Shown here: positions 26,696 through 32,030 of the stretch, piece after piece
Position numbering within the stretch: position 1 is the first letter of the stretch
Layout of the letters: every line of letters begins with the position of its first letter
Assembly (NCBI GenBank): GCA_965208835.1
Contig: OZ242358.1
Coordinates: 2,464,001-2,528,000 of the forward strand
Source: Candidatus Latescibacterota bacterium
GTDB taxonomy: Bacteria; Latescibacterota; UBA2968; GCA-2709665
Length of the DNA: 64,000 nucleotides
Direction of reading: 5' to 3'
Position numbers and translations under genes: made by a program
The notes under the pieces: model-generated
Database searches by the model: none
What the model saw: only the letters and a program-made list of their open reading frames with translations
What the model was told of the DNA's origin: nothing

Positions 26696-27385
26696 ATGAC
26701 GATGCTCTATCTCCTGCTGTTTTTGTGCGCCCTGATCGTCCTCCTTCCCGTGAGGCTGTGGGTGTGTGGCCGCAACGACGCGGGGCGGGGACCGACCCTG
26801 GATATCCGCTTGAGGCCGTGGATCGGTCTGGCGGGTATCCGGCTCTTCTACATTGACGACGGTTGGCGTGCAGGCCTGCTTCTCGGTTGGTGGACCGTGT
26901 TGGCGGTACCGTTGAGAAAGCGGGAGGTCCGGAAGAAGCAGCAGGGGCCGCGCGCGACAAAGAAGACGGAAGCGGACGTACCGGATGGGTTTTCGGCAAC
27001 GGTTGAACGGTTCGTACGGTCCGGACGGCGTTTGAGGAAGCTGTCATTGCCCCTGCGGCGGTCCGCGTTGCGACTTCTGAATGGCTTCCGGCTTCGCCGC
27101 ATAGAATGCAAGATACAGTTCGGCGCATCCGATCCGGCCACGACCGGCCGGATTTACGGATATTTCATGGCTGCCTCTTCTCTCGTGGGAGCCAGGGGAA
27201 GCGTCAACGTGACGCCCGATTTCAAGACACAGCGTCTGGACGGAGAAGCCCGGGTGGGAATCCGGGTTTATCCCCACAGGTTGATGCTGGCATCGGCTTA
27301 TTTCGGGTGGCGTGTTGCGCTTGCGTGGTATTCGGAACGACGCAGCCGTAGACACCCTGATGAGGGCATTGTCGGGGCTGTTTAG
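26696..27385 (+). CDS. DUF2953 (YtfI-like) membrane-anchored protein
   Basis: N-terminal TM segment, FGASDPATTGRIYG and VTPDF motifs; lies upstream of ytfJ. Confidence 0.75.
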   Translation: MTMLYLLLFLCALIVLLPVRLWVCGRNDAGRGPTLDIRLRPWIGLAGIRLFYIDDGWRAGLLLGWWTVLAVPLRKREVRKKQQGPRATKKTEADVPDGFSATVERFVRSGRRLRKLSLPLRRSALRLLNGFRLRRIECKIQFGASDPATTGRIYGYFMAASSLVGARGSVNVTPDFKTQRLDGEARVGIRVYPHRLMLASAYFGWRVALAWYSERRSRRHPDEGIVGAV

Positions 27386-27607: not shown

Positions 27608-28009
27608 ATGTCAGTTGAGGATCTCATCAGGACGGTGATGACGGAATTCCGGCAAATCGTCAAGGCGGAGACGGTCGTGGGGGAGCCGATCGAAATCGGA
27701 GGCACCGTTGTGGTGCCCGTCTCCAGGATTTCTTTCGGGTTCGGCGCCGGTGGCGGTGCGGACAAGTCGGACGGCGGCGGGAGCGGCACCGGCGGCGGCG
27801 CATCCGTGGAACCCCTGGCATTTGTCGTGATTCGAGACGGAAAGGCCCAGATTCTTCCCGTCCAGGAAAAGGAAGGATCCATCAAGGGATTGTTGGACCT
27901 GGCGCCCGACCTTCTGGCGAAAGTGAAAGCCCTTAAGGAGAAGCGAGACCGGCGAAAAGCCGAGGCGGAAGCCGACGCGGATTCCGGTGACGACGACGTG
28001 AGCGCGTAG
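27608..28009 (+). CDS. ytfJ: GerW/YtfJ family protein
   Basis: TVVGEPI...VPVSRISFGFGAGG...GGGASVEPLAFVV. Confidence 0.88.
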   Translation: MSVEDLIRTVMTEFRQIVKAETVVGEPIEIGGTVVVPVSRISFGFGAGGGADKSDGGGSGTGGGASVEPLAFVVIRDGKAQILPVQEKEGSIKGLLDLAPDLLAKVKALKEKRDRRKAEAEADADSGDDDVSA

Positions 28010-29238
28010 TGAACCGGCTTCTGCTGCTCATTCCGACGTCAACCTACCGAACCCGCGATTTCATGGCCGCGGCGGCCGCACTCGACGTCGCCGTAGTCGT
28101 GGGTTCGGACCGCCGGCAGGCGCTCGCGGGTCTGACACCCGGAAAGACGCTTGCGCTGGACTTCGCAAGACCGGCGGCCTCGGTCGAAAAGATCGTCGCC
28201 TTTTCGAAACGGTACCCTGTCCGGACGGTGGTGGGCGTCGATGACGAGACCGTCGTGCTTGCCGCGATGGCCTGCAGCGCGCTCGGACTTCCGCACAATC
28301 CGGTTCCGTCCGTCAGGGCTTCCCGCTACAAACACCTGATGCGCCAGATGCTTGCCGAGAAAGGCCTGCCCTCGCCGGGGTTCAGGCTTTTTTCAGTTCG
28401 GGACCAACCCGCCGCCGCCGCCGCGGCCGTCGACTATCCGTGCGTACTGAAGCCCGTTTCTCTCTCCGCGAGCCGCGGTGTGATTCGCGCGGATCAAAGA
28501 GCGGAATTCGTGACTGCATTCGATCGGATTCTCGAGTTGATTTCGGAGTCCGCAGACAGCTCGCACGAGGCCGGTGATTGCATTCTGGTGGAGGACTACA
28601 TCCCCGGCCGGGAGGTCGCGATGGAGGGACTGCTTGTCGACGGTGAACTGCAGACCCTCGCATTGTTCGATAAACCGGACCCGCTATGCGGGCCCTATTT
28701 TGCCGAGACCCTTTACACGACGCCGTCCCGGCTTCCTGAATGCGTTCAGGCGGGGATTAAAGGAACTGCGCAGGAAGCAACGCGCGCGCTCGGATTGACC
28801 GTGGGCCCGGTCCACGCGGAACTTCGGCTGAACACGCGTGGGATCTATGTCGTGGAGATTGCCGCGCGGTCCATCGGCGGGCTGTGTTCGCGGGTGTTGC
28901 GGTTTGGCGCGGGCGTGTCGCTGGAAGAACTGATTCTGCGCCAGGCGACGGGTCACGCTCCGGGCGATCTACGCAGGGAAAACGCCGCTGCCGGGGTCAT
29001 GATGCTGCCGGTGCCACGGGCGGGAACCCTACGGCGCGTCCGGGGTGCGGCGGGCGCACGGCGCGTGCCGGGAATTGTCGACGTCACGATAACCGTTCCA
29101 CGGGGCCAGCCCGTTCAGCCGCTGCCCGAGGGGGACCGGTATCTGGGGTTCATTTTTGCGCGCGGGAGGACACCCGAGACTGTGGAAACCGCGCTCCGGG
29201 AGGCCAACGGACTGCTCGAGGTCGTGATCGAGGGATGA
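28009..29238 (+). CDS. ATP-grasp domain ligase
   Basis: YPCVLKP..LSASRGV, LVEDYIPG, HAELR, EIAARSIGG. Confidence 0.88.
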   Translation: MNRLLLLIPTSTYRTRDFMAAAAALDVAVVVGSDRRQALAGLTPGKTLALDFARPAASVEKIVAFSKRYPVRTVVGVDDETVVLAAMACSALGLPHNPVPSVRASRYKHLMRQMLAEKGLPSPGFRLFSVRDQPAAAAAAVDYPCVLKPVSLSASRGVIRADQRAEFVTAFDRILELISESADSSHEAGDCILVEDYIPGREVAMEGLLVDGELQTLALFDKPDPLCGPYFAETLYTTPSRLPECVQAGIKGTAQEATRALGLTVGPVHAELRLNTRGIYVVEIAARSIGGLCSRVLRFGAGVSLEELILRQATGHAPGDLRRENAAAGVMMLPVPRAGTLRRVRGAAGARRVPGIVDVTITVPRGQPVQPLPEGDRYLGFIFARGRTPETVETALREANGLLEVVIEG

Positions 29239-29305
29239 GTGGCTGCGAACAGGCCGGTGGACCCGGGACAGGTTCGATCGGTTTCTTTCTTTATGATCCT
29301 TCAGG

Positions 29306-30733
29306 TCAGACAAGAGCGAACTGCTCTTCGGTGGGCTCCGCTCAGCAGTACCAGGGTTCGGTGAGGCGGGGAAGCGATCGGCGGGTCGGGTCCGCATCGA
29401 TAACGACCCTTGGTGCCGGCCGGTCCAGCATCCCGTGCACATGCGACCTGATCCTGCGGAAGATCTCTCGCCGGGGGGCGTCGCTTTTCTGGAGCCGGGC
29501 GACCAGCCGGGTCAGTTCATTCTGGAGCCGGTCCAGACGGGCGTCGGGATGCGCCCACGGGTACAAGAGGGCTTCCGGCGTGAATGTGCCCACCAGATTG
29601 CGGACCTCGGCAAGTTCCAGCAGCCTTGATTCCCCGGGGATAAGCAGCCGGATGGTGAGTTGAACGGGCGAGACGTGTTCGATCAGGTCCAGTTCGGCGA
29701 GTGTGTTCAGAAAACGGGCATACCCCTCCAACGTGATCCAGGGCGTGAACGGGATAAACGTCGGATTCATCACGAGCCGATGTCTCTTGAAGAGCTCGAC
29801 GACCTCGAAGAAGTCGTCGACCGTGTGCCCTTTGTCCAGCAGCGCGAGAACGCGGTTGTCCAGAGACTCTACGGCGGTCGTAACGAGTGCGCACCCGGTA
29901 TCTCTGAGGAGGGGCAGATAGCGCCCATTCTTCAGCAGATGTTCGATCTTTACGGTGATGTCGTAGGTTAGGTCGGGAAATCTGTGGTGCAGTTTTTCGA
30001 CAAGCGGTACGGCGTGGCCGATTCCGTTGAAGAAGTCGGGATCGCCAAACGTGATGTGTTCCGCACCCGTGGCAACCTGTCTCGCAACGTCGTCCAGCAC
30101 GATCTCCGGTTGTACAATCCGGAACCTCCCGCCGTATACGGGCACAACCGGACAGTGGCGACAGAGATGCTTGCAGCCGCGGCTCGCCTCGGTATAGCCG
30201 ACGGTTTTCAGATGCCCGTCGCCCGTGGACAGCCGTGCGTAGCGGGAAAGGTCCGGAAGGCCTGCACGGTCGGGCGGAAGAAAACGCTGCCTGGCAACGG
30301 AAACGACCGGGTCTTCCTGGTCTCCAAGGGCGCCAGAATCCTCCCGCAGGCGATTGCACAGCTGAAGCAGTCCGTTTTCGAATTCACCACCAAGTATGGT
30401 CTGTGCGCCCATGCTTCTCAGGAAGGACTCGTTGACCGAAGCATAGAGACCGTAGAAACAGAGATGTGCGTCGGAATTCAGTTTACGTACCCTTGAGACC
30501 AGTGGAACAGCAAGGCGCGTCGCGGTATGCATTGGCACGTAAAAGGCCACCAGATCGGCGTCGCGAACGTCGTCAGAAGGGAAGTCGACTATGGAAACGT
30601 CGGCCTGGACCACATCGATGTCCGCCCTCCGCAGCCACGCAGCCGGCGAGGCCAGACCGAATGGCTGTCGACCCAGTTCGTAGGTGGACACGAGTACGGC
30701 TTTGAACGGACGCGATTGGCTTGTGGTCGTCAT
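29306..30733 (-). CDS. CUAEP-tail cobalamin-binding radical SAM selenoprotein (TGA at 29342-29344 read as Sec)
   Basis: CxxxCxxC (RGCKHLCRHC) and N-terminal B12-binding-like domain; the frame continues through TGA as EPWYC-U-AEPTEEQFALV to a second stop at 29306-29308, matching the CUAEP/CCAEP-tail family signature. Confidence 0.88.
29312..29328 (-). promoter_or_regulatory. Putative bacterial SECIS hairpin
   Basis: mRNA AAGAGC-AGUUC-GCUCUU stem-loop begins 13 nt after the in-frame UGA. Confidence 0.6.
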
Positions 30734-30745
30734 GGGTCGCATACC

Positions 30746-30798
30746 AAAACAAACGGCAGACGACGGGGAGGTGCCCCTTGAAGTCTGCCGTTTGTTTT
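30746..30798. terminator. Strong hairpin / intrinsic terminator after nfuA
   Basis: AAAACAAACGGCAGAC...GTCTGCCGTTTGTTTT inverted repeat with T tails on both strands. Confidence 0.7.
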
Positions 30799-30807
30799 CT
30801 GCCGATA

Positions 30808-31392
30808 TTACTTCGAGGTCTGGTAGTAGGGGTTTGTGCCGTCCGCGTGTTCGGTAATGTCGAGAATCTCTTTGATTTCCGGCACGGCCTCCTTGATCAG
30901 GACCTCGACACCCTGCTTGAGTGTCACGTCCACCATGCCGCAGCCCTGGCATCCGCCTCCGAACTGGATGTACGCTTTGTCGTCCTTCACATCGATCAGC
31001 GAGATATGGCCGCCGTGCATGGCCACGCTGGGATTGATCTTCTCGTCGATGATGTTCTGGATCTTCTCGGCGGCCGTGCCTTTCAGATGCGGAGGAACTT
31101 TGTTGGGATTCTCGATTTTGAATCCTCTGCCCATCAGGCTGTCCACAAAGTCCAGCGTAATGTCCTCGGCATAGGGAGCGCTTACCGGGTCAATGTAGAT
31201 ATTGAACCCTTCGAACGGCGTGACGGCGTCGTCGTCCTCTTCCTGACCGCGGGCGACGAACGCGAGCCGGTAATTGGCCTGCAGCGGGGACACCGCCTCG
31301 GCCTTGACGCGAACGCCAACGATGTCCGTTTCCTGGCTCCCGATCAGGTTGACAACTTCCTTCTGCGCGGCTTCGGTAACGGTAATATTCAT
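30808..31392 (-). CDS. nfuA: Fe-S biogenesis protein NfuA
   Basis: Cys-less degenerate A-type N-domain plus Nfu domain INPSVAMHGG...GGCQGC. Confidence 0.88.
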   Translation of the reverse strand: MNITVTEAAQKEVVNLIGSQETDIVGVRVKAEAVSPLQANYRLAFVARGQEEDDDAVTPFEGFNIYIDPVSAPYAEDITLDFVDSLMGRGFKIENPNKVPPHLKGTAAEKIQNIIDEKINPSVAMHGGHISLIDVKDDKAYIQFGGGCQGCGMVDVTLKQGVEVLIKEAVPEIKEILDITEHADGTNPYYQTSK

Positions 31393-31432
31393 ATCGACCT
31401 TCCCCTCGGAGAGATTGGCAGTGGCGGGACGG

Positions 31433-31927
31433 TCAGGATTCCAGCGCCACAGCTGACCTTGCGGGTTGTTCCCGGTCTATCTTTTCCTGGATCTTCATCA
31501 GCGCGGACAGCAGATCTTCGGGTCGGGGCGGACAGCCGGGCACGTAGACATCGACCGGCAGAAACTGGTCCACGCCCTGTACCAGCGTATAGGTATTGAA
31601 GACACCTCCGGACGACGCGCACGCGCCCATCGAAATCACCCATTTCGGATCCGGCATCTGGTCATATATCTTCTTGAGTACCGGCATCATCTTGATTGAT
31701 ATCCGGCCCGATACGATGAGCAGGTCGGACTGGCGGGGCGAAAACCGCACGGCTTCCGCGCCGAACCGGGCCATGTCGAAGCGCCCGGAGAGTGTCGCCA
31801 TCATTTCGATGGCGCAGCAAGCCGTGCCGAATGGCATCGGCCACAGAGACGACTTGCGCGCCCAGTTTATCATCTTTGAAAGCGTGGTAGTAATTACGTT
31901 GTCGCCAAGGCCCGTTTCAAGTCCCAT
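31433..31927 (-). CDS. nuoB: Stand-alone NuoB-like [4Fe-4S] protein (second paralogue)
   Basis: [39 protein letters not shown]. Confidence 0.9.
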
Positions 31928-32030
31928 TGAACACCTCTGAAAGGATGTCTGGATTCGTCCTGTATCTCTTACGACGGCGTGGGCGGGTCCCCGCGATACG
32001 TCCCGCCGGCCCCGCACGTAAGGCGGGTTG

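Follow-up and report, generated by a model that had tools for sequence, protein, structure and literature searches.

A predicted Cys-Sec-tailed radical SAM selenoprotein of family NF040546 in a Candidatus Latescibacterota genome, with a possible ArsL-like chemistry

On the minus strand of the window, a 64,000-nucleotide stretch of a Candidatus Latescibacterota genome (assembly GCA_965208835.1, contig OZ242358.1, positions 2,464,001 to 2,528,000), lies a gene for a radical SAM protein of family NF040546 whose codon 464, a UGA, is almost certainly decoded as selenocysteine under the direction of a SECIS hairpin, as judged from comparative sequence data. The gene is a member of a curated, already catalogued family; it is not new and represents no new kind of system. 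The best overall explanation of the locus, held with high confidence, is an NF040546 selenoprotein; the ArsL-like chemistry that we infer for it is held much less firmly. Added here to the family record are the covariation of the SECIS hairpin, the contrast between the hairpins of Sec and Cys forms, and statistics on neighbouring genes. The features concerned, in window coordinates, are as follows.

29306..30733, minus strand: full coding sequence of the predicted radical SAM selenoprotein, 475 residues with U464, true stop codon included (from translation)
29342..29344, minus strand: UGA predicted to be read as selenocysteine (U464), directly 3' of the Cys463 codon TGC (29345-29347)
29309..29341, minus strand: eleven codons 3' of the UGA, AEPTEEQFALV (from the sequence)
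29306..29308, minus strand: true stop codon TGA (from comparison with same-phylum loci)
29312..29328, minus strand: putative SECIS hairpin, 5' arm 29328-29323, loop AGUUC 29322-29318, 3' arm 29317-29312
30152..30175, minus strand: CxxxCxxC radical SAM cluster motif, C187, C191 and C194 (invariant alignment columns and Pfam)
28009..29238, plus strand: ATP-grasp L-amino-acid-ligase-like protein, convergent, the family's conserved partner (domains, PDB match and census)
30808..31392, minus strand: NfuA-type Fe-S carrier closing a suf operon, upstream on the same strand (TIGR03341 and census)

Selenocysteine at codon 464

The minus-strand frame at the end of the gene reads TGG TAC TGC TGA GCG GAG CCC ACC GAA GAG CAG TTC GCT CTT GTC TGA and, with the first of these TGA codons taken as selenocysteine, the translation of 30733..29306 closes as ...EPWYC-U-AEPTEEQFALV-stop. 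Standard gene calling ends the protein at ...EPWYC because the UGA would be decoded under a SECIS hairpin placed within the final eleven codons; the table 11 open reading frame, 29342..30952, stops at the first TGA and extends 5' beyond the likely ATG at 30733. An initial sequence-only reading had noticed both the frame continuing past ...EPWYC and the truncation short of the tail, and both are confirmed. The orthologue of Thermomicrobium roseum DSM 5159, a Sec form encoded on the megaplasmid, is also cut at the UGA in a RefSeq-derived table.

Machinery for selenocysteine insertion is present in the genome. Profile searches recovered selA (563.6 bits) and selB (361.2 bits) side by side, with a tRNA-SeC(tca) adjoining selB, and selD (358.6 bits), itself containing one TGA. 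A search of 168 genomes of the same phylum returned exactly one in-frame TGA in 33 of 33 orthologues, and the string TGG TAY TGC TGA GCN GAR CCN is found at 30 of 30 same-phylum loci. Across many phyla the Sec site carries TGA at 99 of 108 loci and a Cys codon (TGC/TGT) at 9 of 108, while among the best 120 protein hits eight run on as CCAEP (CCAEPT...) and 112 end at ...EPW[YF]C. A Nonomuraea sp. carries one of the natural Cys-form (CCAEP) homologues. At the place of the second TGA (29308-29306) each of the 30 same-phylum loci either has one of the stop codons TGA, TAA and TAG or terminates within a few further codons, and this codon is therefore a stop and not a conserved second Sec codon. 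Every check that the sequence-only reading named as a possible refutation of its selenoprotein spoke in favour of it: selA, selB, selC (tRNA-Sec) and selD all occur in the genome, a Cys stands in homologues where this gene has TGA, and AEP is conserved beyond that site. A SECIS-like hairpin follows as well. SelB and tRNA-Sec would decode UGA 464, and the small hairpin within the last eleven codons would direct this decoding.

Bacterial SECIS elements are stem-loops placed just 3' of the UGA according to published spacing rules. The stem-loop read from the letters as a 6-bp stem 13 nt after the UGA is indeed there: AAGAGC, loop AGUUC, GCUCUU, with its first base 13 nt past the A of the UGA, its apical loop beginning 20 nt after the UGA, and a G at loop position 2. 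Among 91 distinct Sec-form sequences all six pairs are formed in 67 and five of six in 24, whereas six of the nine Cys-form sequences form only two of the six pairs; the loop G is retained in 91 of 91 Sec forms versus five of nine Cys forms. Pairing at the hairpin, 86.1% of cells, compares with 43-56% in slid controls, and covariation, 0.302, with 0.194 in shuffles, none of which (0 of 500) reaches 0.302. Stems with compensatory changes include AAGAGC/GCUCUU, AGGAGC/GCUCCU, GGGACC/GGUCCC and CCGGCC/GGCCGG. In Cys forms with a similar peptide the hairpin is lost, and there a synonymous change of CAG to CAA removes the loop G. The stem-loop pointed out in the sequence-only reading behaves as a SECIS element would, covarying among Sec forms and missing from Cys forms.

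Folding of the single sequence does not exceed chance. A 36-nt fold gives -7.9 kcal/mol (z = -1.13), with 30 of 200 shuffles folding as well; folds in longer context show no excess stability over shuffles (z = -0.13 to +0.51), and the minimum-energy folds of 62-nt and 39-nt stretches do not contain this stem. The evidence for the hairpin is therefore taken from cross-species comparison only. Rfam, scanned over 29000-31000 at E <= 10, returned five matches at chance level, none of them at the hairpin, and a scan of 28900-31500 for consensus promoters and terminators gave no promoters and two terminator-like sites, against 2.1 expected. A genuine stop at the UGA, with the downstream conservation reflecting an RNA element (terminator or regulator) in place of a translated tail, would agree with the lack of significance of the hairpin on a single sequence, but can scarcely be entertained given the complete Sec machinery, the same AEP tail in Cys-codon orthologues, tails that other lineages keep open over 11 to about 48 codons, a curated NF040546 profile that spans the tail and is matched to position 467 of 468, and Ala, Glu and Pro codons after the UGA whose first and second bases are invariant in the 91 distinct Sec-form sequences while the third bases vary.

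Family NF040546 and its relatives

Family NF040546, "CUAEP/CCAEP-tail radical SAM (seleno)protein", is reached with 607.4 bits against a cut-off of 500, residues 13-473 aligning with profile positions 2-467, tail included, and a search of the genome with the profile gives 600.8 bits with one TGA inside the match. The hallmarks of the family, a C-terminal Cys-(Sec/Cys)-Ala-Glu-Pro motif and a radical SAM CxxxCxxC core, are both present; together with the full-length match, the ...EPWYC-U-AEP tail and the Sec/Cys alternation at one site, they leave no difference at the family level. The CCAEP/CUAEP radical SAM family named in the sequence-only reading exists and includes this protein. In the portion consulted of the Haft 2022 preprint (bioRxiv 10.1101/2022.07.06.499078), NF040546 is named as a family of uncharacterised selenoproteins with a CU motif. 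A literature search on CUAEP/CCAEP tails returned nothing relevant beyond that preprint and, judged by title among the matches listed, nothing relevant that links ArsL with selenocysteine. A relative is present in at least 592 species-level genomes, and in the protein search every one of the 8000 scored candidates has E <= 1e-20. Within the protein, Pfam places Radical_SAM (PF04055, 47 bits) at residues 184-332; C187, C191 and C194 are invariant across the homologue alignment, and about 25 residues of low conservation lead into the highly conserved tail.

The second-best family is ArsL (NF040542), matched with 280.1 bits over residues 13-405, below its cut-off of 450, and identity to ArsL and other RCCLKC-tail proteins is 31-33%. 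Both have a common N-domain and radical SAM core followed by a Cys-rich C-terminal tail. The tails themselves differ, with WYC-U-AEP... here and ...FKRCCLKC in ArsL, so that the RCCLKC motif is lacking here; about 45 extra residues, missing in ArsL, precede the tail, which offers two chalcogens compared with the three Cys used by ArsL. The gene context differs as well. The arsL of a Pseudomonas amygdali plasmid has arsM, arsQ and arsN in its context, whereas the present gene has an L-amino-acid ligase and NfuA and no ars genes (arsM, arsQ, arsN) among its neighbours. In the available extracts of the ArsL reports, the RCCLKC tail of this arsinothricin biosynthesis enzyme binds As(III), is required for C-As bond formation and binds no auxiliary cluster, and the authors know of no radical SAM enzyme in PF04055 other than ArsL that cuts SAM at the ACP carbon.

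An AlphaFold model of the protein (pLDDT 90.2) finds its best fold match in AprD4 (PDB 6fd2; Foldseek E 2.3e-19, TM 0.67/0.70), with TsrM, MgmA and OxsB also among the matches; a sequence profile searched against PDB chains finds MgmA 9ccb alone (E 5.3e-5). AprD4, a radical SAM 1,2-diol dehydratase, shares the radical SAM core and the Rossmann-like N-domain. Differences include a sequence identity of 17%, an aminoglycoside substrate for which the context of the present gene has no counterpart, and a Sec tail, which the AprD4 descriptions at hand do not mention for that enzyme.

Neighbouring genes

The convergent neighbour has an ATPgrasp_N, ATP-grasp_4 and LAL_C2 architecture, as do L-amino acid ligase BL00235 (3vot), its closest solved relative (E 5.1e-35), and BacD (3vmm, E 1.8e-13). 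No NCBIfam equivalog was reached for it, the best score being 116.6 bits against a cut-off of 625, and BLASTP found no similarity between it and the radical SAM protein. Action of an ATP-grasp enzyme on an acidic protein tail has precedents in LysX/LysW and RimK; such action on the radical SAM protein, whose tail is acidic, was considered and set aside, the LAL-type architecture favouring a free amino-acid substrate. BL00235 makes Met-Gly and Met-Met according to a table in one review, seen in extract. Methionine carries the ACP skeleton.

Neighbours at 108 loci were counted in a tblastn census, preferred to greedy calling of open reading frames, in which longer antisense frames displaced NfuA at high-GC loci; since the loci counted are kin, these counts overstate independent support. 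The ligase gene accompanies the radical SAM gene at 74 of 108 loci, at 59 of them no more than 400 nt away, and in three different arrangements, and the pair is found in Gemmatimonadota, Acidobacteriota, Methylomirabilota, Chloroflexota, Actinomycetota and others. NfuA is upstream at 41 of 108 loci, with the same orientation in 40 of them, and the phylum's other 29 loci all have it there. The NfuA-type protein of this genome scores 163 bits with TIGR03341, below the cut-off of 269, and a homologue carries Fe-S_biosyn and NifU domains; in this genome sufD-sufS-sufU-sufT-Rrf2-NuoB-like-nfuA precede the radical SAM gene on the same strand. NfuA, YggX or aconitase is nearby at 78 of 108 loci. The aconitase/YggX link, essentially one arrangement of 19 loci, may for that reason be inherited gene order.

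Flanks of up to 9 kb could be surveyed at 79 loci, and 19 of these show none of the recurrent neighbours. In a census of 79 loci (this locus plus L047-L126), clusters with ABC ATPase, glucokinase, G6PD, HAD hydrolase, Lgt, cytochrome c or DUF7948 each appear at 12 or fewer and look like lineage-specific gene order. Besides the ligase, the recurrent neighbours (NfuA, YggX, aconitase, suf) suggest Fe-S housekeeping and not natural-product synthesis.

Possible chemistry and role of the Cys-Sec tail

The best lead, though a tentative one, is that the enzyme, in the manner of ArsL, moves a SAM-derived group onto an atom bound at the Cys-Sec tail, with a possible ligase step in addition. The architecture would be of the ArsL/AprD4 type, a Rossmann-like N-domain followed by the CxxxCxxC radical SAM core, its [4Fe-4S] cluster supplied or repaired by the adjacent NfuA. 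The acceptor, for which a metalloid or chalcogen such as As, Sb, Se, Te or S is a candidate, would receive the ACP group and yield a methionine-like gamma-substituted amino acid, which the neighbouring L-amino-acid ligase would couple to another amino acid. In its favour are ArsL as the second-best family, the As(III)-binding tail of ArsL, the fold match to AprD4, the frequency of the ligase gene and the methionine dipeptides made by BL00235. Against this lead stand the score below the ArsL cut-off (280 vs 450), the absence of RCCLKC and of ars neighbours, a tail with two chalcogens only, the 19 loci bare of recurrent neighbours, the Fe-S housekeeping character of the neighbours besides the ligase, and the kinship of the loci counted.

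A canonical 5'-deoxyadenosyl-radical enzyme acting on a small molecule or peptide, with the Cys-Sec tail as a mobile redox arm, is a second possibility, one that we regard as open to serious doubt without thinking it remote. The C-terminal Cys-Sec of thioredoxin reductase forms a selenenylsulfide/selenolthiol couple, and a comparable arm would supply electrons or a hydrogen atom, or else help to resolve an intermediate. The standard CxxxCxxC motif and Pfam Radical_SAM domain, the fold match to AprD4 as a 5'-dA-type enzyme, the roughly 25 poorly conserved residues ahead of the tail, as expected of a flexible arm, and the replacement of Sec by Cys at nine of 108 loci, as in redox selenoproteins, all fit such a function. 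In ArsL, however, the closest characterised relative in sequence, the tail is described in the extracts available as binding the substrate atom and not as carrying redox equivalents, and apart from the ligase no candidate substrate gene is conserved nearby.

A role in Fe-S or sulfur/selenium trafficking, in which the tail, in concert with NfuA and SUF, would bear a persulfide or selenide or else act as ligand to an auxiliary cluster, is unlikely. It draws on the frequency of NfuA, aconitase or YggX (a protein of oxidative-damage protection and Fe2+ trafficking) near the gene and on its position behind the suf genes in this genome. An NfuA beside a radical SAM gene has cluster supply as a simple explanation too, however; the aconitase/YggX association is about one arrangement, the ligase link is more widespread, and the ArsL tail, on the published account as far as available, binds no auxiliary cluster.

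The sequence-only reading had called the protein cobalamin-binding and its tail a possible methyl carrier, and neither description found support. A cobalamin-dependent radical SAM methyltransferase with the methyl group carried on the Cys-Sec tail is very unlikely, even with weak partial hits to B12/radical SAM families (e.g. TIGR04072, 48 bits against a cut-off of 360), precomputed PF02310 hits for some homologues, and TsrM, MgmA and OxsB among the fold matches. Pfam at E <= 0.01 finds only PF04055 in the protein and no B12-binding domain PF02310; the best fold is AprD4, whose homologues, like those of ArsL, bind no cobalamin according to the passages available of a 2026 review; the accounts of ArsL reconstitution, in the extracts at hand, mention no cobalamin. 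The N-domain is probably Rossmann-like and not cobalamin-binding, and with cobalamin binding unsupported the methyl-carrier tail is unsupported too.

Extending the ArsL-like reading to the pair of genes, the radical SAM selenoprotein and the ligase may form a widespread two-enzyme pathway leading to an undescribed methionine-like amino acid and then to a dipeptide, a proposal that is speculative and somewhat improbable as a whole. The 3-amino-3-carboxypropyl group of SAM would be joined to Se, Te, Sb, As or S on the Cys-Sec tail.

The gene should be annotated as a selenoprotein of 475 residues and not as a 463-residue protein with a terminal Cys. The family to which it belongs is large, mostly of the Sec form, and the nearest relative of ArsL. 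Its conserved pairing with an L-amino-acid ligase offers a concrete pathway to test. If the ArsL-like chemistry is true, the noncanonical radical SAM chemistry of ArsL would have its second example in this family, which would also be the first to hold its substrate through a selenocysteine ligand.

The radical SAM gene and its in-frame UGA

The gene under study is placed as follows.

Window 30733 (ATG) to 29306, minus strand: radical SAM selenoprotein gene, frame read from the sequence

Under translation table 11 the ORF terminates at 29342. Re-reading of the sequence agrees with the sequence-only reading that the frame stays open beyond this first TGA, its 3' end being ...ACC GAA CCC TGG TAC TGC TGA GCG GAG CCC ACC GAA GAG CAG TTC GCT CTT GTC TGA. 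Translation with TGA as U gives 475 residues and a C-terminal end of ...LTEPWYC-U-AEPTEEQFALV. The protein matches the NCBIfam equivalog model NF040546, "CUAEP/CCAEP-tail radical SAM (seleno)protein", at 607.4 bits (cut-off 500), and the match takes in the tail, since residues 13-473 align to profile positions 2-467 of 468. The second family is ArsL (NF040542), a radical SAM protein that serves arsinothricin biosynthesis and has an RCCLKC tail, at 280.1 bits and under its cut-off of 450. The nearest database proteins, at 83% identity, are from Gemmatimonadota assemblies and are already so named by NCBI. The family invoked in the sequence-only reading exists and is already known and curated; the profile match places this gene in it as an unexceptional member.

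Searching the genome (a single contig of 5.18 Mb) for selenocysteine machinery recovered selA, selB, selC and selD. By profile score selA (563.6 bits) and selB (361.2 bits) adjoin at 3.5367-3.5400 Mb, and tRNA-SeC(tca), found by ARAGORN, immediately adjoins selB. The fourth gene, selD, scores 358.6 bits.

Genome G000:C1:4401300-4402223 (this genome, outside the window), plus strand: selD, with one in-frame TGA

The selenophosphate synthetase of this Latescibacterota organism is probably a selenoprotein too.

Above-cut-off matches to NF040546 occur in 33 of 168 same-phylum genomes, including 21/21 same-family genomes other than its own. All 33 orthologues hold exactly one TGA inside the match, and TGG TAY TGC TGA GCN GAR CCN is present in 30/30 fetched same-phylum loci, where the roughly 25 residues preceding the motif are poorly conserved and the tail is almost invariant. 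Species-representative genomes yielded at least 592 relatives. Among the best 120 protein hits, 112 terminate ...EPW[YF]C and 8 run on as CCAEPT.... A site census of 110 loci (L017-L126) gave a readable site in 108, L060 and L117 lacking a pattern match; the codon is TGA in 99, TGC in 8 and TGT in 1, so that Cys stands at the TGA position in 9/108 loci, with AEP conserved downstream. Across the 91 distinct Sec-form (TGA-bearing) sequences, the Ala, Glu and Pro codons that follow the UGA never change at their first two positions but do vary at the third, the signature of a translated peptide under selection.

The orthologue of Thermomicrobium roseum DSM 5159 (L127 6947-8460, plasmid NC_011961.1) runs on as TGA-AEPLEDPSGPVASQVRMVDQPLR, so the product on record is truncated at the Sec codon. 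Tail length differs among lineages: several, for the most part with the labels Acidobacteriota or Terriglobia, have about 18-30 open codons in their Sec forms and as many as 48 in one Cys form. L058, L063, L068, L072, L073 and further loci, chiefly with Acidiferrales or Acidobacteria labels, carry 18-30 residues after Sec vs 11 here, e.g. AEPTGDQLAPIAEARKSLRQADAFV, and long tails commonly finish in F-V. From these lengths, the function of the tail may be wider than presenting the Cys-Sec pair.

The hairpin downstream of the UGA

Window 29328-29312, minus strand: hairpin AAGAGC/AGUUC/GCUCUU, first base 13 nt after the UGA

Both the sequence of this hairpin and its distance from the UGA are as the sequence-only reading had them, and its spacing and loop G-U agree with those of the E. 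coli fdhF SECIS. As one sequence it is unremarkable: a 36-nt fold of the region has -7.9 kcal/mol (z = -1.13), longer stretches adopt other folds, and Rfam gave no match at the hairpin. Across loci the stems covary (AAGAGC/GCUCUU, AGGAGC/GCUCCU, CGGAGC/GCUCCG, GGGACC/GGUCCC, GAGACC/GGUCUC, CCGGCC/GGCCGG). Two registers occur, whose loops are 5 nt and 4 nt (AGUU) long. Counting the better register for each sequence, the 91 distinct Sec forms make 6/6 pairs in 67 and 5/6 in 24, whereas the nine Cys forms make 2/6 pairs in 6, and 3, 4 and 5 pairs in one apiece. Mean minimum free energy of a 25-nt piece is -9.4 kcal/mol for Sec forms vs -4.2 for Cys forms. Loop position 2 is G in 91/91 Sec forms vs 5/9 Cys forms, the synonymous Gln codon CAA appearing among the latter.

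With the 5-nt-loop structure fixed for all 91 Sec sequences, 86.1% of cells are paired vs 43-56% with the partner slid, and both-sided changes are seen in 3/6 stem pairs; the 4-nt-loop register by itself scores more poorly across the whole set. The covariation score is 0.302 vs 0.194 +/- 0.012 in shuffles, 0/500 of which reach 0.302, a significance that is overstated because the sequences are kin. On these comparisons, the difference between Sec forms and Cys forms is a stronger argument than the shuffle control. Together with the Sec machinery, the single-TGA orthologues, the alternation of TGA with Cys and the third-base variation, it supports the reading of this UGA as selenocysteine.

Neighbouring genes

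Ahead of the radical SAM gene on the same strand are sufD, sufS, sufU, sufT, an Rrf2 regulator, a NuoB-like protein and an NfuA-type carrier; on its other side it is convergent with an ATP-grasp gene. Neighbours were counted by tblastn in 108 loci: its own, 29 same-phylum (1.5-kb flanks) and 78 of other lineages (flanks up to 9 kb).

Neighbours in the tblastn census (loci of 108)
ATP-grasp ligase: 74; 45 same strand, 29 opposite; within 400 nt in 59
NfuA: 41; always upstream, 40 same strand
YggX: 33
Aconitase: 24
DUF169: 16

The ligase is found in 70 of the 96 loci having at least 1.5 kb of downstream sequence, in at least three arrangements (downstream same strand, downstream convergent, and ligase-nfuA-radical SAM on one strand). 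NfuA is present in 29/29 same-phylum loci and 12/79 long-flank loci (up to 9 kb, own locus included), and 19/79 long-flank loci have none of these neighbours. The ligase has the domains ATPgrasp_N, ATP-grasp_4 and LAL_C2; among solved structures its nearest relative is BL00235, an L-amino acid ligase (3vot, E 5.1e-35), BacD being next.

Several further features surround the gene. A perfect 16-bp inverted repeat at window 30746-30798, whose arms (30746-30761 and 30783-30798) enclose a 21-nt loop, takes up most of the 74 nt that separate the nfuA-like stop from the start of the radical SAM gene, with a U-rich run at the end of its 3' arm in the minus-strand RNA. Its role may be that of a terminator or attenuator setting the gene apart from the suf operon; a consensus terminator scan missed it because its loop exceeds 8 nt. 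The stand-alone NuoB-like protein (window 31433-32017, minus strand; Pfam Oxidored_q6; NF005012 NuoB subfamily, 241 bits) is encoded between the Rrf2 regulator and nfuA within the suf operon, with no other nuo gene seen near, and in 22/108 loci tblastn places it upstream of the radical SAM gene. A GerW-family 'sporulation' protein (window 27608-28009, plus strand; 81 bits, under the cut-off of 116) ends exactly at the ATP-grasp start (GTG 28009), which suggests translational coupling of the two genes. Upstream of it lies a DUF2953 protein (window 26696-27385, plus strand), and two neighbour clusters including the GerW-family and DUF2953 genes recur in 4-5 loci of a first neighbour census.

Fold, likeness to ArsL and possible chemistry

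An AlphaFold2 model from an 84-row alignment has mean pLDDT 90.2 and pTM 0.90, with pLDDT falling C-terminally to 80 (451-460), 63 (461-470) and 40 (471-475). The top Foldseek match is AprD4 (6fd2, E 2.3e-19, TM 0.67/0.70), then TsrM, MgmA, OxsB and MiaB.

ArsL and other RCCLKC-tail proteins share 31-33% identity over 83-89% of the protein's length. In the published account of ArsL, the enzyme breaks the SAM C-gamma-S bond and puts a 3-amino-3-carboxypropyl moiety (ACP) on As(III); its C-terminal RCCLKC binds arsenic and is needed for product formation, yet dispensable for SAM cleavage. Like ArsL, the present protein consists of a core and, behind it, a chalcogen-rich tail; unlike ArsL, its tail comes after about 45 extra residues and holds two chalcogens vs three Cys. 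C92 is also found in the one ArsL aligned, whereas the family-invariant C281 is absent from it. No ars genes are among the neighbours, and the locus differs from the true arsL context, arsQ-arsL-arsM-arsN1. Next to the T. roseum orthologue lie genes for a PLP aminotransferase, an MFS transporter and a GNAT acetyltransferase, which as a group resemble the genes for export and resistance that surround arsL.

The preferred mechanism, held tentatively and by analogy, is an ArsL-like step in which the Cys-Sec pair would hold the atom that receives ACP, the product then being handed on to the neighbouring ligase. ACP transfer to a heteroatom would give a methionine skeleton, and the BL00235 products given in a review table, Met-Gly and Met-Met, fit this analogy, though only as a lead. 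Roughly level with the ArsL-like step stands a canonical 5'-dA radical SAM enzyme whose tail would be a redox arm. The cobalamin binding proposed in the sequence-only reading lacks support, Radical_SAM being the sole Pfam domain and AprD4 the nearest fold, and cobalamin not being bound by AprD4 and ArsL homologues according to a 2026 review; the methyl-carrier tail is likewise unsupported.

The value of this case lies in a correct annotation and a well-defined biochemical target, rather than in a discovery.
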